A stretch of DNA of 64,000 nucleotides from an uncultured Clostridia bacterium (GCA_944331875.1 CALVJA010000012.1:638-64637), one strand, 5' to 3'. Numbered from the stretch's first letter, positions 5,799-39,700 are shown. Numbers and translations: made by a program. Notes: a model not told the origin generated them from the sequence alone.

Positions 5799-5807
5799 TA
5801 TTATTTT

Positions 5808-5972
5808 GTGGCGGCTCAAGCCGATTTTCGACTCAATAGGGCGCGTCCTTTCCGCTACGTCGTCGAAAACCCCGCTTGCTAAGACCGCAAGAGTATTAGC
5901 GGCGGGGGTTTTCTTAGACGTAACGAAAAATCCACTGCCCTATTGAGCCGAAAATCGACTTTCACCGCCACT
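5808..5972. repeat. Foldback element, copy 1 (inverted orientation relative to copies 2 and 3)
   Basis: Nested inverted repeats: GTGGCGG/CCGCCAC; a 23-nt arm GCCGATTTTCGACTCAATAGGGC pairing 21/23 with GCCCTATTGAGCCGAAAATCGAC; inner GAAAACCCCGC/GCGGGGGTTTTC. The core contains AGTATTAGCGGC, the reverse complement of the GCCGCTAATAC core of the neighbouring copies. Confidence 0.7.
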
Positions 5973-6009
5973 GACTGCTTACCAAACTTTCCTAAAAATT
6001 TTGTTAGAC

Positions 6010-6360
6010 AGCATAGTGTCGGTGAAGCTAAAATTTTGCTGTGATACGGTGATGGATCTCGGATACAGACGAAGAAAGGCGGTGCCGCTAATACCCGGAG
6101 GGTCTTGCGGCGCCGTTAGAAGCTTTTGGCTTGTGGCACTTAAATGATTGCGGCAACTCATGCATTTCAGCATTAGATTATTAGGAAGTATAGTGTCGGT
6201 GAAGCGGAAATTTTAGCGTTTTGCGGCAGGAGATTTTTCGTTAATGCGAAGAGAACTTCCGACGTTAATACCCGTAGGGTCTTAACTAGGAAGTTTTCAA
6301 AGCAGTAGCGGAAAAGATACGATGCAAAACGTTAAAATTTCCGCTGAGCCGACACAAAAA
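6010..6360. repeat. Foldback elements, copies 2 and 3 (tandem ~175-bp units)
   Basis: ATAGTGTCGGTGAAGC(T/G)(A/G)AAATTTT occurs at 6014 and 6190. Its inverted partner GTTAAAATTTCCGCTGAGCCGACAC is at 6331, giving a ~30-bp stem. Both units share the core TAATACCCG(G/T)AGGGTCTT. Confidence 0.7.
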
Positions 6361-6363
6361 AAA

Positions 6364-7836
6364 TCATGCTTTGCTCCAAGCCTTGGGATAGAAGAGAAGT
6401 AAAATGGGTATTATCTCGAGTCTTCCCATGAGCATTGTGAAGGAAAGCACTATTTTGGAAAATCCGGTGAGGTGCGCGAAGCTGTACATCGGACCGAAAG
6501 AACCGAGTCCGGGGCCAACGTTGTTGATGCAGGTGGCTACCGCCGAGAAGTTTTCCACAAGTCCCACGGAATCCACTTCGGCAAGCGAGATGAGTACCAA
6601 AGATATCACCGTTACCAGGAAATATCCGATAAAATAGTGTCCTACCGACGTTCTGAGCTCGTCCGAAAGCGGTCTGCCGTCCAGTTTTACGGGGAATACG
6701 CCGCGCGGCGAGTACACTTTTCTGACCCCCGCCACGGCGGATTTGGCGCCTATGACGATCCTGGAGACTTTTAACCCGCCCGCAGTGCTCCCGGCGGAGC
6801 CGCCTATGAACATCAATGCCAGCAAAACGACGTGGCAAAGCGTCGGCCATGTATTGAAGTCCGCCGTCGCGAATCCCGTCGTTGACATCACCGAAGCCGC
6901 CTGGAACGCGGCGTAGCGCAGCGATTCCCAGAAGTTGTCGTAAATATCGTATACCGTGAGGCTCACGGTCATCAAAAGCGTCGCGACCCCGAAGATTATA
7001 AACATCGTGCGGAACTCTTCGCTCCTCAGCGCCGCGGACACGCGCCCTATCAAAATGAAATAGAACACGTTGAAATTGGCGGCGAAAAGCATCATGAACA
7101 CCGTTATCACGACGTCGATATACACCGAATCGTAATACGCGACCGATATTCCCCTGTTGGAAAATCCGCCCGTGCCCGCGGTGGACATCGAAAATACCAC
7201 CGCGTCGTAAAGGTCCATTTTCGGAGAAGCGACCAGGAATATAACCTGCAAAACGGTGAGCGCCAGGTATATGCAATACAGTATGCGCGCCGTGAAGCGC
7301 AGCTTCGAAACGAGTTTGCCGAACTCCGGGCCGGGGACTTCCGCTTTCATCAGGTGCACGATCGCGGGACCCGTCTTCGGCAAAAGCGCCACCACGAAAA
7401 CCAGAATGCCCATACCGCCTATCCAGTGCGTCATCGAGCGCCAAAACAATATGCTTTTGGGCGCGGCGTCGATATTTGTCATTATGGTGGCGCCCGTTGT
7501 CGTGAATCCCGAGACCATTTCGAATATGCAGTCGATGAAATTCGGGATGACCCTGCTGATGCAAAGCGGCAGCGCGCCCGCTATACTCATCAATATCCAC
7601 GCCAGAGCCACCGTGACGAAGCCGCAGGAGGACGTTATATGCGTGTTTTTGGGTTTTTTGACGATAAACGGGATACCCGCCGCCAGCAATATCGCTATGG
7701 TGACGCCGAACCCCAGCGCGGTGCTCGACAGATCCTCGCCGTACCCGAACGTCATCAAAAAGGGTATAAGCATCAGACCCGCCGTTATGACGGCGATACT
7801 GCCCAGAATATACGATGTCATCCTGTAGTTCATCAT
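6364..7836 (-). CDS. trkH: TrkH/KtrB-family K+ uptake membrane subunit
   Basis: 490-aa polytopic protein with repeated pore-loop-like motifs GFTTTGATI, STAGTGGFSN, MSTTGFATADF and GGSAGSTAGGLK. Lies directly downstream of trkA. Confidence 0.9.
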   Translation of the reverse strand: MMNYRMTSYILGSIAVITAGLMLIPFLMTFGYGEDLSSTALGFGVTIAILLAAGIPFIVKKPKNTHITSSCGFVTVALAWILMSIAGALPLCISRVIPNFIDCIFEMVSGFTTTGATIMTNIDAAPKSILFWRSMTHWIGGMGILVFVVALLPKTGPAIVHLMKAEVPGPEFGKLVSKLRFTARILYCIYLALTVLQVIFLVASPKMDLYDAVVFSMSTAGTGGFSNRGISVAYYDSVYIDVVITVFMMLFAANFNVFYFILIGRVSAALRSEEFRTMFIIFGVATLLMTVSLTVYDIYDNFWESLRYAAFQAASVMSTTGFATADFNTWPTLCHVVLLALMFIGGSAGSTAGGLKVSRIVIGAKSAVAGVRKVYSPRGVFPVKLDGRPLSDELRTSVGHYFIGYFLVTVISLVLISLAEVDSVGLVENFSAVATCINNVGPGLGSFGPMYSFAHLTGFSKIVLSFTMLMGRLEIIPILLLFYPKAWSKA

Positions 7837-9900: not shown

Positions 9901-10770
9901 ATGTACGACGTGATTCTTAATCCCGTTTCCGGCAAAGGAAACAGCATGAAGGCATATATGACGGTGAAAGCCGTACTGGACAAAGCGGGCGTGGAATGGG
10001 CGCTGCACAAGACGGAATACCCCCTGCACGCTACCGAAATCGTCAGAAAATTGAACGAAAAGGAGCACGCCGACGTCATCGTCATGGGCGGCGACGGCAC
10101 TTTGAACGAAGTGTTGAACGGCATAACCGATTTTTCGCGTATAAACCTCGGGATAATCTCCTGCGGCACCGGAAACGATTTTATACGCGCGGCAGGACTT
10201 CCGTCCGATCCCGCCGAGGCAGTGAGGCTCATCCTCGCGGGCAACACGGGCTACGTCGATTTTCTGGAACTACCGATGAGGCGCGCCATGAACTGCGCCG
10301 GAGCGGGAATGGACGTCGACGTCCTCGTCAGATACGCTTCGATGAAGGCGTTCAAAGGTAAAATGAAATACTACGCTTCCCTTATCGACACCCTCATCAA
10401 ATGTAAATTCCACAAAATAGCGCTCGAGGTGGACGGCGTCAGATCGGAAAAATCGGTTTTCATGATAGCCGCGGCGAACGGCACCTGTATCGGCGGCGGC
10501 ATGAAGATAAGCCCCAATTCCGTCACCGACGACGGGAAACTGAACGTCGTTTTGATAAACGAAATGCCCAAAAGAAAGATACTTCCCACCCTCATAAAAT
10601 TTTTGAACGGCGGAAAGCATATAACCTCTCCGTATACCGAGGAGTATCTCGCGGAGCGCGTAAGGATAGAGGTTTTGGACGAGGGTCTTACCGAAGTGGA
10701 CGGCGAGGTCATGAACGAAAAGGTCATCGACTGCAAAATAGTCCCCCACACCCTTATGATTTTCAAATGA
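9901..10770 (+). CDS. Diacylglycerol-kinase-family lipid kinase (YegS/DagK-like)
   Basis: MYDVILNPVSGKG N-terminus and GGDGTLNEV catalytic loop. GGAGGG SD before ATG 9901. The track start at 9844 lacks an SD. Confidence 0.85.
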   Translation: MYDVILNPVSGKGNSMKAYMTVKAVLDKAGVEWALHKTEYPLHATEIVRKLNEKEHADVIVMGGDGTLNEVLNGITDFSRINLGIISCGTGNDFIRAAGLPSDPAEAVRLILAGNTGYVDFLELPMRRAMNCAGAGMDVDVLVRYASMKAFKGKMKYYASLIDTLIKCKFHKIALEVDGVRSEKSVFMIAAANGTCIGGGMKISPNSVTDDGKLNVVLINEMPKRKILPTLIKFLNGGKHITSPYTEEYLAERVRIEVLDEGLTEVDGEVMNEKVIDCKIVPHTLMIFK

Positions 10771-10910
10771 TTTTTTTGCCGAAAAGATGATAATTTAATG
10801 CTTTGACAGGAACATAAAAGCAATGTAATGAAAAATGGTGCATTCGACCGAATGCGCTTTTTTTCATAAGGTGAAAATATATTCGGCAAAAAAATCAATA
10901 CCACCGCTTT
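10768..10910 (+). repeat. 143-bp MITE-like module, copy A
   Basis: 141/143 identical to 20857-20999. 13-bp terminal inverted repeats TTTTTTTGCCGAA/TTCGGCAAAAAAA. An internal TTGACA box is followed ~40 nt later by hairpin GCATTCG-AC-CGAATGC plus GCTTTTTTT. Confidence 0.85.
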
Positions 10911-11835
10911 ACCGCGTCTTTCGGGCTCTTTTTTTCGAAATCTTCGACCCCCGCTTTGGAGACCAAACGGGGGCAGCGTCGGCGCGTATGCTATACGCGC
11001 TGTCCTTGTTTCGAAAAAAATAGCGCAGAAACTCACGGCAAATCGGCGCCAAGTATGCTGTTCGAAGCGATAAAATACACAGTGGACTATATTCTCATGT
11101 CGTGGAAAACACTAGTACAGTCGAACTGCTATTCATGGCGATTGCAATATGGTCTTTAGATTGAAGCCCCGCCCTCCCGCCCTATGTGGGGGTATAGGGA
11201 CATGGTAGGTATGGGCTTTATAATGAAGTAGGCTTTTGTGCTAAAGTGTTATACTGCCTTAAATCAAAAATCTTTTCTAGTGTTTAGCGGGGAAGAATGT
11301 GGAAAACTCCGATTTCGCGTATAGTTTTTCCCTTTCCCGTAATACACAAAGTTTATTATTCCTTTAACAGCATATCCCCAAGCCATTTCAACGGGGGAGG
11401 CGCGCGAAGCTTTAGCGGAGCACTTATTCGCCGGGGGTGAAGCGTAAGCGTAACCCCCTCCGATTACATGGCTTGGAAGGTTCAAAGTTTGTTTTCCTTT
11501 TCGTCTGTAATAGTGCCTTTATGAAAGAAATATACACAATGGGAACAGCGCTCCATACTGCTAAACTCTATGATGGGCAAATAAAACACAAAAGCAAATA
11601 CTACGCCTACAGCCGTAGATTTTCGGGTGATTTTTCGTGAACAAAATATCGGCATACGATGTATGCCGACATTTTTTCGCGGAAAAGGACCGAAAAGATA
11701 CGGGAAAGGAATGTTTAAGTTCTTTAATATTTTTTATATCGGAGCGTAGCGACCCTGAACAAAATCCGCGGACAAAAGCAAGAGTGGATATGATGTTTTT
11801 TTTATTTGAGCATTCTATAAAACTCTTAGCGGATT

Positions 11836-12011
11836 TTATTTCACAAATCGACACTTCGGAAAGTTGATTTAACTTCATAAATTTATAGTGTCGATTTATT
11901 TCACAACGCGCCCGTTACGGCTCTACTTCCTACCCTCGGGCGCGTTATTTCACAATTCCGCTTGCGGAATTATTTCACTTTTTTTGCGGCGGTTTCGCCG
12001 CCACAAAAAAA
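11836..12011 (+). repeat. TTATTTCACAA-punctuated hairpin array A
   Basis: TTATTTCAC(AA) at 11836, 11896, 11945 and 11970. Each is followed by a hairpin: ATCGACAC..GTGTCGAT; CGCGCCC..GGGCGCG; TTCCG-CTTG-CGGAA; T7-GCGGCGG-TTTC-GCCGCCAC-A7. Confidence 0.8.
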
Positions 12012-12038
12012 CTCATTCCAACCTTACAACGTGCGTAT

Positions 12039-12962
12039 TCAGTCGTTTTCGAGGAGTTTGTTTTTGAACGCCGCTTTGCGGGCGTTGGCTGAAAGGATCT
12101 CTCTTTCCTCCGCGGTTATGGCTAAAAGTTCGTATTCGCGCCTGAGGGTGGTGGCGGAAACGGCGGTGTTGTCGGTATTCAGTGTGACCGCTACGCCCTG
12201 TGCCATGAGCCGCCTTAGCGGATATTCGCCCCCTTTCCATGCGCCCGTTTGCAGATTCGAGGTGTAACAGAGTTCAAGCGTTACCCCCTCCGATATTATG
12301 CGGCGCAGCGTTTCCGGGTCCTCCACAGCCCTTACGCCGTGCCCCAGGCGCTTTGTACCCATATCAAGCGCCGCGCGGACGGACTCCGCGCCGCCTGCCT
12401 CGCCCGCGTGTATCGTAAACGGTATGCCCTTTTCGCGCGCACGGTCGAATATATATTTATACTCCTCGGTCGGGAAACGCCCCTCGTCGCCCGCAAGATC
12501 TATCGCGACTATTCCGGAGGCGGTTTTTACATATTCCTCTGCAAGCCTGAGCGTTTCGAGGTTCGCATCCCGTTCCCCGCCGCGCATACAACACAAAATT
12601 ATCCCTATCGGAAAACCCCTCTCGAAAGATCTTTTAGCGGCGAAAGAAGCCGCGGAAACTATCTCGCTTTGCGTTGCGCCCGTATCGGTACTGAGCGACG
12701 GCGCAAAGCGTATCTCGGCGTATTCCAGCCCTTCCTTTTCGAGCCTTTCAGCAAGGAGCATTATCGCATGATATACCGATTCGGGTGACTGCAAAAGCGA
12801 TAACGGGAGCCTGAAACGCTCTAGATATGCTTTAAGTCCGCCCTCGGGATCGGGCGGCGAGGACGGATACGTCACCCGCGTTTTCGCATTTTGTTTTGCC
12901 GCCAGCGCGTTTAATTCTCTTTCCCCCAGCGAGCCGTCCAGATGTATATGCAGGTCTATCAT
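12039..12962 (-). CDS. add: Adenosine deaminase
   Basis: 307 aa. Metal-site blocks IDLHIHLDG, FTIHAGE and LNTDN. Overlaps the punA stop. Confidence 0.85.
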   Translation of the reverse strand: MIDLHIHLDGSLGERELNALAAKQNAKTRVTYPSSPPDPEGGLKAYLERFRLPLSLLQSPESVYHAIMLLAERLEKEGLEYAEIRFAPSLSTDTGATQSEIVSAASFAAKRSFERGFPIGIILCCMRGGERDANLETLRLAEEYVKTASGIVAIDLAGDEGRFPTEEYKYIFDRAREKGIPFTIHAGEAGGAESVRAALDMGTKRLGHGVRAVEDPETLRRIISEGVTLELCYTSNLQTGAWKGGEYPLRRLMAQGVAVTLNTDNTAVSATTLRREYELLAITAEEREILSANARKAAFKNKLLEND

Positions 12963-20816: not shown

Positions 20817-20845
20817 ATTATATCAACCCGTATCCCCAAAGTCAA
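20817..20845 (-). promoter_or_regulatory. Sigma-A-type promoter of the str operon
   Basis: Minus strand TTGACT-17 nt-TATAAT. Confidence 0.65.
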
Positions 20846-20856
20846 GCATTTACCAT

Positions 20857-20999
20857 TGATTTTTTTGCCGAAAAGATGATAATTTAATGCTTTGACAGGA
20901 ACTTAAAAGCAATGCAATGAAAAATGGTGCATTCGACCGAATGCGCTTTTTTTCATAAGGTGAAAATATATTCGGCAAAAAAATCAATACCACCGCTTT
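20857..20999 (+). repeat. 143-bp MITE-like module, copy B
   Basis: 141/143 identical to 10768-10910, with the same TIRs, TTGACA box and hairpin/T-tract. Confidence 0.85.
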
Positions 21000-21632
21000 G
21001 CGCCTCTTTTCCGCCGTATCGCACGAAATTACTTAAAGCCTTTAATATCACCCCGTTTTGGAGACCAAAACGGGGCGCGGACGGCGCATAGTCCCGCTAT
21101 AGCGCCGCCCGCGTTTCTTGCGATACGACGCAAAATAGTCTGCAAATCGGTGCCGAGTATGCTTTCCAATGCGCCAAAATACACAGTGAACTAAACACTC
21201 TCAACGTAGCGAAAAAATACAAAGTGAACTATACACGCTCTACTTGGCAACAAAATACATAGTGGACTGCATTCTTCTTTCATGCAAAACACTAATGCAA
21301 GCAAACTGCTGTTCATGGCTAAAGCAAATCGGTGCCGAGTATGCTTTCCAATGCGCCAAAATACACAGTGAACTATACACGCTCTACTTGGCGACAAAAT
21401 ACACGCCTACAGCCGTAGATTTTCGGGGGATTTTTCGTGAACAAAATGGCGGCATACGATGTATGCCGATATTTTTTCGCGAAAAAGGACCGAAAAGATA
21501 CGGGGACTAAAGTATATAGTTGATATATGACTCTTCAATCTAACGACCGCAACAAAATTCGAAACTTTTTGCTTGAACGGGGGAGTGTATATCTTTTTGC
21601 TTGTGCGAGGATATAAAAGTGCGGTTCGAATT

Positions 21633-21768
21633 TTATTTCACAAATTGAAACTTTGCCCGCGAAGTTTCAATTTATTTCACAACGCGCGCCCATGGGGCGC
21701 GCGTTATTTCACAATTCCGCTTGCGGAATTATATCACCGTTTTTGCGGCGACAACGTCGCCGCAAAAA
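21633..21768 (+). repeat. TTATTTCACAA-punctuated hairpin array B
   Basis: Motif at 21633, 21672 and 21704, plus the TTATATCAC variant at 21729. Hairpins: ATTGAAACTT..AAGTTTCAAT; CGCGCGCCC-ATG-GGGCGCGCG; TTCCG-CTTG-CGGAA; GTTTTTGCGGCGA-CAAC-GTCGCCGCAAAAAC. Confidence 0.8.
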
Positions 21769-21769
21769 C

Positions 21770-22420
21770 TCACCCTCCCTGTTTTATCTTCGTGTCGAGT
21801 ACATGGCGGGCGGCGAGTTCTTTGAATACGTCTTTGGGTTCGATACCCATTTCCACCATCATGACCATGGCGTGGTAATAAAGGTCGGCAAGTTCGTATA
21901 TCGCCGCTTCCTTGTTCCCCGCTTTCCCTTCGATGATGACTTCGGTGGATTCCTCGCCCACTTTTTTCAGTATCTTGTCTATCCCCTTATTAAATAGGTA
22001 TGTGGTGTAGCTGCCTTCTTTCGGGGAAGTCTTTCTCCCCTTTATGAGTTCGTAAAGCCCTTCTATCGAAAAAGGCTTCATGTCCTTACCTACGAACAGC
22101 GTTCTGTAAAAACAGCTTTCGTTTCCCGTGTGGCAGGCGGGGCCGTCCTTTATGACCTCGGCTACGAGCGAGTCGCCGTCGCAGTCGAGGCGCATTTCGA
22201 CTACGTGCTGGAAGTTTCCGCTCGTTTCGCCCTTTGTCCAGAGCGTCTTCCTCGAGCGGGAATAAAGGCAGGTGACTCCCTTTTCGAGGGTCGCTTTCAG
22301 GCTTTCCTCGTTCATGTACGCGAGCATCAGCACCTGTTTCGAGTAGTAGTCCTGCACGACGCAGGGCACCAGCCCTTTTTCGTCGAATTTTACTTTGGAT
22401 AAAATATCTGCCGCTATCAT
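21770..22420 (-). CDS. hisIE: Bifunctional phosphoribosyl-AMP cyclohydrolase / phosphoribosyl-ATP pyrophosphatase
   Basis: 216 aa from ATG 22420, overlapping the hisF stop. LVPCVVQD and CHTGNESCF (HisI) plus a C-terminal HisE helical part. The track extension to 22606 runs inside hisF. Confidence 0.9.
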   Translation of the reverse strand: MIAADILSKVKFDEKGLVPCVVQDYYSKQVLMLAYMNEESLKATLEKGVTCLYSRSRKTLWTKGETSGNFQHVVEMRLDCDGDSLVAEVIKDGPACHTGNESCFYRTLFVGKDMKPFSIEGLYELIKGRKTSPKEGSYTTYLFNKGIDKILKKVGEESTEVIIEGKAGNKEAAIYELADLYYHAMVMMVEMGIEPKDVFKELAARHVLDTKIKQGG

Positions 22421-23175
22421 ATTCTTACCTCCACGCCCCGAGTGCGGAGCCTTTGCTTTATATCGGATATAGACACTTCGCCGAAGTGGAAAATGCTCGC
22501 CGCAAGCGCCGCGTCCACGCGGGGCACCTTGTCGAAAAGCTCCTCGAAGTGCTCTATCTTCCCCGCGCCGCCGGAAGCTACGACGGGCACGTCCACCGCG
22601 CTGCATACGGCGTCAAGCATCTCTATGTCGAAGCCGTCCTTGACGCCGTCGGTGTCGATGCTGTTCAACACTATCTCGCCCGCGCCGAGGCTTTGTCCCT
22701 TTTTCGCCCAGGAGACCGCCTCGAGCTCCGTTTCCTCCCTGCCGCCGCGCGCGAAAACTTTGAATATCCCGTTCACACGCTTTACGTCCATGGAAAGCAC
22801 CACGCACTGGTCGCCGTATTTTTTTGCCGCGGCGGTTATGACGGAGGGGTCGCGTATCGCGCCCGTATTGACGGACACCTTGTCCGCACCGCTTTTCAGC
22901 ACGCGGTCGAAGTCCTCGACGGTGTTTATGCCGCCGCCCACGGTAAGCGGGATGAATATCTCGCGCGCCACTTCGCTTAAAACCGACGTGAACAGTTTTC
23001 TTCCCTCGTTCGAGGCGGTGATGTCGTAAAATACAAGCTCGTCCGCGTTCTCCGCGTTGTATCTGCGGGCAAGCTCCACAGGGCTTTCGACGTCGCGGAT
23101 ACCGACGAAATTTTTGCCTTTGACCACTCTGCCGTCGCGCACGTCAAGACATGGTATTATACGTTTAGCTATCAT
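22417..23175 (-). CDS. hisF: Imidazole glycerol phosphate synthase cyclase subunit
   Basis: 252 aa. RIIPCLDVRDGRVVKG. his operon order. Confidence 0.95.
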   Translation of the reverse strand: MIAKRIIPCLDVRDGRVVKGKNFVGIRDVESPVELARRYNAENADELVFYDITASNEGRKLFTSVLSEVAREIFIPLTVGGGINTVEDFDRVLKSGADKVSVNTGAIRDPSVITAAAKKYGDQCVVLSMDVKRVNGIFKVFARGGREETELEAVSWAKKGQSLGAGEIVLNSIDTDGVKDGFDIEMLDAVCSAVDVPVVASGGAGKIEHFEELFDKVPRVDAALAASIFHFGEVSISDIKQRLRTRGVEVRI

Positions 23176-39333: not shown

Positions 39334-39362
39334 ATTATACCAAATACCCGCGCCAAAGTAAA
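39334..39362 (-). promoter_or_regulatory. Sigma-A-type (extended -10) promoter of the pyr operon
   Basis: Minus strand TTTACT-17 nt-(TGg)TATAAT. The leader is ~25 nt to the AAGAGG SD. Confidence 0.6.
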
Positions 39363-39394
39363 GCGTTTTCCGCCCCAAACGGACTTGAGTTTCA

Positions 39395-39700
39395 TTTTTA
39401 GCCTTTCGGCTAAAAGTGATATGCACGTTCCGTGCGTGATATTTTCAGCCCGAGGGCTGAAAGTTACCTTAACTTCTCCCAACGGGAGAAATATCACTCT
39501 GCGAAGCAGAATATCACTTGACGAAGTCAAATATCACTTTGCGAAGCAAAATATAACTTGAGTGTTTAAGTGATATTTTTTAGCCTATCGGCTAAAAAGT
39601 GATATGCACGTTCCGTGCGTGATATTTTGCCCTAAAGGGTCAAAGTTATATTTTCAGCCTTGCGGCTGAAAGCTTTTTCAGCAGTCCGGCTGAATAGAAG
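39395..39700. repeat. ATATCAC/GTGATAT-punctuated mini-hairpin array with a 4 x 20-bp iteron-like core
   Basis: GTGATAT at 39416, 39436, 39570, 39599 and 39619. ATATCAC at 39491, 39511 and 39531. Degenerate ATATAAC at 39551 and GTTATAT at 39645. 12 or more hairpins lie between the motifs. See findings. Confidence 0.85.

Follow-up and report, generated by a model that had tools for sequence, protein, structure and literature searches.

The window analysed, a stretch of 64,000 nucleotides from an uncultured Clostridia bacterium, contains two arrays in which a short motif alternates with hairpins. Array 1 (11836-12011, minus strand) lies directly downstream, in the gene sense, of add, encoding adenosine deaminase (12039-12962, minus; Pfam A_deaminase, 1.3e-58). 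Array 2 (21633-21769, minus) abuts the stop codon TGA (21770-21772, minus) of hisIE (21770-22606, minus; Pfam PRA-CH and PRA-PH). Each array comprises four hairpins and four linkers, and the distances to the adjacent genes given by an initial sequence-only reading, 28 and 2 nt, agree with the gene coordinates (12011 against the low end of add at 12039; 21768 against the low end of hisIE at 21770). The hisIE ORF is Pfam-confirmed, yet was not selected by the dicodon coding model; neither Pfam domain covers its first ~90 residues, and in several relatives the alignment does not begin until residues 61-69.

The motif, TTATWTCAC on the plus strand, occurs 8 times in the 64-kb window, compared with 0.79 occurrences expected and with 0 of 100 shuffles reaching 8. 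All eight sites fall inside the two arrays, at 11836, 11896, 11945 and 11970 in array 1 and at 21633, 21672, 21704 and 21729 in array 2. The site at 21729, a TTATATCAC variant, is the one departure from an otherwise invariant motif, as had been noticed at the outset. On the minus strand the motif reads UUGUGAAAUAA, with the core GUGAAAU. Every inter-motif stretch in arrays 1 and 2 is a near-perfect hairpin with a stem of 7-12 bp, and the alternation of motif and hairpins, with stems that differ between the loci yet remain complementary, is thereby borne out at both arrays. The motif has some resemblance to the DnaA box, TTATNCACA, but is one base too long and occurs at ~40 gene ends; it also recalls the parS half-site, GTGAAAC.

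Array 1, described from the gene outwards and on the minus strand throughout, opens with the gene-proximal hairpin (11979-12011), U7-GUGGCGG-loop-CCGCCGC-A7, which contains a single U.G pair, equivalent to a C-A mismatch when the plus strand is read, and has no U-tract after the stem. A GUGAAAU linker core (11972-11978) follows, then the hairpin of slot A (11954-11971; AATTCCG-CTTG-CGGAATT in plus-strand reading, 7-bp stem) and a second GUGAAAU core (11947-11953). The slot B hairpin (11905-11946) is a long allele, with a AACGCGCCCG stem of 10 bp and a 22-nt loop, and is separated by a third GUGAAAU core (11898-11904) from the slot C hairpin (11845-11897), likewise a long allele, with a AAATCGACACT stem of 11 bp and a 31-nt AT-rich loop. 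The distal GUGAAAU core (11838-11844) leads into a further module of the repeat, beginning AAAATCCGCTA.

Array 2, also on the minus strand, has the same plan. Its gene-proximal hairpin (21739-21769; GTTTTTGCGGCGAC-loop-GTCGCCGCAAAAAC) again consists of a U-run, a stem and an A-run, and is followed by the linker variant GUGAUAU (21731-21737). The slot A hairpin (21713-21730) is the same module as in array 1, the identity of this third hairpin at the two loci having been recognised in the sequence-only reading. After a GUGAAAU core (21706-21712) comes the short allele of slot B, AACGCGCGCCC-ATG-GGGCGCGCGTT (21681-21705), whose 11-bp stem belongs to a palindrome that is perfect through its centre. 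Another GUGAAAU core (21674-21680), the short allele of slot C with a 12-bp AAATTGAAACTT stem (21642-21673) and the distal GUGAAAU core (21635-21641) complete the array, which then passes into a module beginning AAAATTCGAACC.

The gene-proximal hairpins (11979-12011 and 21739-21769) carry a T-run 5' and an A-run 3' of the stem on either strand, and the claim that they are not canonical terminators stands: an A-run rather than a U-tract lies 3' of the stem, and the terminator scan made no call on the gene-proximal hairpin of array 1 or array 2. Across the genome the U-run 5'/A-run 3' arrangement is found in 29 of 37 copies and the reverse in 0 of 37. Ordinary Rho-independent terminators of add and hisIE accompanied by chance repeats, as might be suspected from the position just past the stop codons and from GC-rich gene-proximal hairpins flanked by homopolymer runs, are very improbable in the face of this inverted arrangement, the lack of a scan call, and a motif that is ~100-fold enriched genome-wide. 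Since the first hairpin is without a 3' U-tract, the upstream transcript would be expected to read into the array. At both window loci a bidirectional terminator-like hairpin lies ~170 nt beyond the array, but the family in general does not show this. A terminator module shared downstream of all arrays was considered and rejected, as the strict scan found a terminator at only 8 of 40. In the gene sense the linker, GTGAAATAA, contains stop codons in two frames (TGA and TAA), and at five loci (C1:67054, C1:157689, C8:43089, C27:3355 and C33:965) an upstream ORF predicted by our own ORF caller runs across the first hairpin, its stop codon being the TGA in the linker that follows.

The arrays form the outer, gene-proximal ends of composite repeat mosaics of ~1 kb, the modules of which are present in 15-100 genome copies each. 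Mosaic 1 (10758-12017) fills the gap between a convergent yegS/dagK-like gene (plus, ending at 10770) and add (minus, ending at 12039). Mosaic 2 (20849-21772) extends from the stop codon of hisIE towards the L7Ae-rpsL operon and its promoter. This near-consensus promoter (20817-20845, minus; TTGACT, 17 nt, TG-TATAAT) lies exactly at the edge of mosaic 2, so that the mosaic fills the space from the hisIE stop to the promoter without overlap. The commonest repeat module, with 60-100 copies, is found at 10758-11130 and 20849-21200; it starts at the yegS/dagK-like stop codon and includes a canonical intrinsic terminator (GGTGCATTCGACCGAATGCGC then T7), meaning that even ordinary terminators in this genome are supplied by repeats. 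A third composite mosaic (5799-6364), comprised of modules with 20-55 genome copies, lies between two minus-strand genes and holds a ~170-nt palindromic element that opens with a TTTTGTGGCGGC arm, shared with the gene-proximal hairpins of the arrays. At 21044-21075, within a module of ~55-70 copies, ATATCAC is followed by the hairpin CCCGTTTTGG-AGAC-CAAAACGGGG; the word had been reported immediately 5' of the hairpin at 21050, which the sequence confirms, and its occurrence in this module indicates that a linker-like word is also used singly, outside arrays. For annotation, the repeat family accounts for ~1 kb of intergenic sequence that would otherwise be puzzling and that follows many genes in this uncultured bacterium of the gut.

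Within the 1.96-Mb assembly the 11-mer TTATTTCACAA is present in 112 copies. Clusters with three or more linkers number 48; 40 are long-linker arrays, the type to which arrays 1 and 2 belong, and the rest canonical Gut-1 arrays with a 20-nt phase, and the long-linker arrays contain 109 exact TTGTGAAATAA linkers. Perfect end-stems of at least 7 bp are found in 102 of 110 inter-linker segments, the mean being 9.2 bp as against 0.39 bp in shuffles; together with the 112 copies of the 11-mer, this provides the genome-wide enrichment of motif plus hairpin for which the sequence-only reading had proposed a search. Linker spacings in the long arrays are 25-26, 30-33 or 48-50, and 37-39 or 60-61 nt.

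The order of parts, in the Rfam sense, is the same in every copy: an AU-clamped first hairpin, slot A, slot B and slot C, with GUGAAAU before each, and then, after slot C, GUGAAAU and one of two continuation modules. The stem modules of slot A are AATTCCGC, AATTTTGC or AATTCCTC. Slot B is occupied by AACGCGCCCG or AATGCGCCCG with a 22-nt loop, by AATACGACCC with a tetraloop, or by AACGCGCGCC, and slot C by AAATCGACACT or AAATCGGCAT with a 31-33-nt loop, or by AAATTGAAACTT. Array 1 represents the 'long' module combination and array 2 the 'short' one, and further combinations occur in the genome. Equivalent hairpins thus differ between loci because a slot can be filled by any of several ready-made stems, and arrays 1 and 2 are two of ~40 copies of a dispersed modular repeat and not an independently covarying pair. 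The initial interpretation survives in part: the alternation of motif and hairpin, the non-terminator character, the link to the array at 39.4 kb and the genome-wide enrichment were upheld, and the two loci now take their place among ~40 modular copies of one repeat.

Pairing within the family is close to perfect. The 126 inter-linker hairpins contain 1134 Watson-Crick pairs, 0 G-U pairs (on the Rfam-sense strand), 9 A-C pairs, mostly from one allele, and 8 other mismatches. When 13 short and 13 long arrays were aligned, the paired cells made up 98.7%, compared with 27-44% in slid controls; one-sided changes are almost absent, and the cells changed on both sides, 25 and 21 in the two alignments, are reached by 0 of 500 shuffles. 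Wobble pairs were uninformative as an indicator of strand, with 0 G-U against 9 A-C in the arrays and 1 against 1 in the canonical Gut-1 units. The only sense-specific pairs are invariant A-U and U.G pairs that RNAalifold places inside the linker.

The loops vary in a different manner. Those of the short hairpins are near-saturated with variation, as against 109 letter-perfect linkers. Loops that are reverse complements of each other on the same stem (GAA/TTC, TCC/GGA, TAC/GTA, GAT/ATC and TGCG/CGCA) number 5 where 0.95 are expected (P = 0.0004), and self-complementary loops, e.g. CGCG and CATG, also occur among the arrays. Perfect palindromes, the lack of wobble intermediates, flipped loops and module exchange at identical linkers are the outcome to be expected when inverted repeats in DNA undergo templated correction, spacer inversion and recombination. 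As DNA palindrome dynamics yield the same pattern, complementary stem differences alone are neither proof of selection on an RNA fold nor evidence for a protein-binding function. The same signature implies that, where genomes are rich in repeats, structured RNAs called from covariation may need re-examination. The linker is another matter: 109 exact copies beside saturated loops suggest that something may read it, a feature for which a purely structural 3' cap would offer no explanation.

Placement with respect to genes is distinctive. Gene context was taken from our own dicodon gene caller, which is crude (it missed hisIE), and the gene-context counts given here are therefore approximate. Most long-linker arrays have their first hairpin within 0-60 nt of the stop codon of an upstream gene that runs in the same direction. 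Array orientation matches that of the adjacent gene in 20 cases and opposes it in 4, equally for leading- and lagging-strand genes, and 15 of 31 arrays lie between convergent genes, compared with 10.5% expected (P = 1e-7). A replication-linked orientation, as seen for ssDNA transposons, was rejected, with 16 arrays on the leading and 18 on the lagging strand where GC skew is informative. Polarity that tracks the transcription of the neighbouring gene and not replication argues against a mechanism like that of ssDNA transposons and for a constraint at the gene 3' end.

Polarity also bears on whether the arrays could act purely as DNA, the GC-rich palindromes in AT-rich linkers serving as cruciform-prone or protein-bound sites that handle transcription-induced supercoiling, with RNA being irrelevant. 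Such a function, proposed by analogy with BIMEs, would be in keeping with the perfection of the palindromes, the 0 G-U pairs, the self-complementary and flipped loops, the AT-rich flanks and the strong enrichment in convergent gaps. A symmetric DNA function, however, would not predict a polarity that agrees with the neighbouring gene at 20 of 24 arrays, independently of the replication strand; in addition, hairpins with 22-31-nt loops make poor cruciforms, and the long loops never flip. A DNA-only role therefore seems rather unlikely.

The relationship of the family is indicated by the Rfam collection. At the gathering threshold a scan of the window returned a single match, Gut-1 (RF01706), with 66.4 bits (minus strand, 39486-39559). 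This belongs to a canonical mirrored Gut-1 array (39361-39630) with GUGAUAU linkers and a 20-nt phase, for which the plus strand gives further scores of 37.8 and 27.6 bits. That the motif recurs in the array at 39395-39700 had been noted from the sequence and is correct for the 7-nt core, found there as ATATCAC/GTGATAT, with A or T at the fourth position. In sensitive scans Gut-1 is the best-matching family for both arrays, in each case on the minus strand, with 38.9 bits and E 3.2e-6 for array 2 (21630-21739) and 25.3 bits and E 0.0099 for array 1 (11893-12018). Neither array 1 nor array 2 reaches the curated Gut-1 cut-off of 50 bits at these scores, and a match below this level marks the arrays as a divergent relative of a catalogued, unexplained motif. 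The Rfam consensus of Gut-1 consists of three hairpins of variable sequence with GUGAAAU between them. Gut-1 was originally described from human-gut sequences and rated as a non-coding/small RNA, with no function given (Weinberg et al. 2010, PMC2864571). Rfam has listed it since 2010, with the grade 'certain', among structured small RNAs, at that time from gut metagenomes only, and no later functional work on Gut-1 was found in the literature.

Among relatives the distribution is patchy. The exact linker pair, present 76 times in this genome, has 0 occurrences in the 40 relatives searched, 21 of which are of the same genus. Canonical Gut-1 was found in 10 of 41 genomes searched, namely in 9 of 22 in the genus, the present genome included, and in 1 of 3 from other genera of the family, and in 0 of 16 from other families of the order. 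The yegS-add gap, a 1269-nt mosaic here, differs in the nearest relatives: it is ~160 nt long in one (G018), with an ordinary terminator and no repeat, and contains two extra genes in another (G001). A scan of genome contigs with a two-linker pattern gave mostly single chance matches in unrelated phyla and a few real small arrays in Clostridia MAGs; a scan of metagenomes with a three-linker pattern gave ordinary tandem repeats only. With no exact linker pair in 40 relatives and no more than a handful of public arrays, the amplification is specific to the present lineage. Only one further record encodes the same Add protein; it agrees at 100% over 5 kb and is the same assembly; no exact record of hisIE was found.

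A candidate partner for arrays of this type emerges from the same comparison. Genes for PF05635 proteins (Avd-like, annotated as '23S rRNA intervening-sequence protein') are carried by 10 of 10 genomes positive for Gut-1, as against 5 of the 31 without it (Fisher P = 2.7e-6; within the genus 4.6e-4), neither value allowing for phylogeny. Of the 16 PF05635 genes inspected in relatives, 6 have mini-hairpin arrays within ~250 nt, with linkers that are locus-specific, and the array-associated proteins avoid one well-supported PF05635 subclade. In one relative (G017:C153; arrays at 676-795 and 1228-1310 of locus L146) the PF05635 gene is flanked on both sides by mirrored mini-hairpin arrays, the linker of which is CGWTAACTA / TAGTTAWCG; this genome was scored Gut-1-negative by the Rfam model, which evidently misses linker variants of the same architecture. 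The present genome has a single PF05635 gene (C2:14714-15019), following four tRNA genes (Asp, Phe, Thr and Tyr). At this locus (C2:14200-15800, outside the window) the gene is embedded in four units spaced 164 nt apart. These tandem units form long hairpins (z = -6.6), the arms of which are 7-nt periodic, CTTCACT/AGTGAAN. The protein gene and its repeats beside tRNAs resemble the rRNA intervening-sequence arrangement.

The arrays could accordingly be considered as ligands of a dedicated protein, the Avd-like four-helix bundle of PF05635 reading single-stranded GUGAAAU linkers at ~160 sites at gene ends. The co-occurrence, the arrays beside PF05635 genes in relatives, the avoidance of one subclade and the far better conservation of linker than of loops would all suit such a role, as would the GTGAA core that the linker has in common with the repeats around the genome's PF05635 gene. 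That shared core was noticed post hoc, however, with a chance of ~1%; none of the ~40 long-linker arrays and no Gut-1 array lies beside the PF05635 gene of this genome; the protein also occurs in five Gut-1-negative genomes; and the co-occurrence may stem from shared ancestry or from a shared mobile element. The link of PF05635 to the long-linker arrays is at best suggestive, being indirect, and we regard the ligand interpretation as unlikely, albeit the main alternative. A broader version, in which Gut-1-type arrays would be no independent small RNAs but the nucleic-acid half of a two-part system with an orphan Avd-like PF05635 protein, the ligand having been multiplied in 3'UTRs, is speculative and, on balance, doubtful. 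Were it true, the protein would read a clade-specific 7-nt linker between sequence-free hairpins, and the ligand would have escaped its gene to give ~40 arrays (~160 linkers) in the 3'UTRs of housekeeping genes; what arose might be a post-transcriptional regulon spanning the genome, or else a selfish repeat riding on the protein. In this respect the arrays sharpen a testable hypothesis as to partner, namely the Avd-like PF05635 proteins.

Two other possible sources of the repeat were searched for by protein family. No match to PF01797, the Y1/RAYT (IS200-type) transposase, was obtained in the genome (0 matches), and an origin of the hairpins from a reverse transcriptase or DGR-like system was rejected, PF00078 not being found in the genome.

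The identity of the repeat, its copy number, modularity and pairing statistics, its placement at gene ends, its polarity and the non-terminator shape of its first hairpin are direct observations. The interpretation that we favour, with a probability of roughly 60%, is that the arrays are a REP/BOX-like dispersed modular palindromic repeat, a variant of the Gut-1 family that is enlarged, amplified and specific to this lineage, and which is probably read as a string of 3'UTR hairpins. In the sense of add and hisIE the array starts 0-28 nt past the stop with the AU-clamped hairpin and continues through slots A, B and C joined by the invariant linker UU-GUGAAAU-AA, and the alternative modules available for each slot make copies look covarying. 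At the DNA level, template switching within the palindrome could keep palindromes perfect and occasionally flip them, while recombination at the identical 11-nt linkers could shuffle modules between copies; spread within the species may have followed a route that is transposase-independent or supplied in trans. At the RNA level, a transcript reading in would fold into a row of four hairpins of high stability, between which a short GAA or GUGAAAU would stay single-stranded. The resulting 3'UTR cap could block 3' exonucleases and insulate neighbouring transcription units, in the manner of REP/BIME and BOX elements, and it would be generic, not a specific regulator of add or hisIE. A generic 3'UTR hairpin string built upon a DNA-palindrome repeat is thus the most likely mode, with a linker-reading protein as the main alternative.

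The arrays are a new, amplified, modular and enlarged variant of the known Gut-1 family. Like Gut-1, they consist of tandem hairpins with sequence-free stems, each hairpin being bordered at either end by a GUGAAAU or GUGAUAU linker, and they are found in gut bacteria, in multiple copies and patchily among species, a canonical copy being present in the same window. Unlike Gut-1, with its hairpins of ~13 nt and phase of ~20 nt, they have a linker lengthened to 11 nt (UUGUGAAAUAA), hairpins of 18-53 nt and loops of up to 31 nt, as well as a fixed order of slots with alternative modules and ~40 copies attached to gene 3' ends; the exact form of the array is also restricted to one species. In the present genome, then, the Gut-1 design has become an amplifiable, modular intergenic repeat that is species-specific and bound to gene ends, and the pattern of variation suggests that Gut-1, catalogued as an "RNA motif", acts in the manner of a mobile repeat made of DNA palindromes.

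Palindromic intergenic repeats of other bacteria offer further points of comparison. The REP/BIME elements of enterobacteria are short palindromes of conserved sequence with a RAYT (Y1) transposase as their cognate enzyme, and have been proposed to protect mRNA 3' ends and to bind gyrase; the BIMEs of E. coli in particular have been proposed as sites for gyrase or nucleoid proteins. As with REP/BIME, the arrays described here are multi-copy intergenic palindromes, set in mosaics at gene 3' ends and in convergent gaps. Their genome, however, is without the Y1 (PF01797) transposase, and their stems are drawn from several unrelated modules per slot, only the linker being constant. The BOX elements of Streptococcus pneumoniae (boxA-boxB-boxC) are modular hairpin repeats near gene ends without a transposase of their own. 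Judging from that description, BOX and the present arrays have in common a multi-copy intergenic distribution, stable hairpins and modules that vary in number and combination. There is no sequence relation between the two, and whereas BOX modules are conserved in sequence, the arrays conserve only a short linker.
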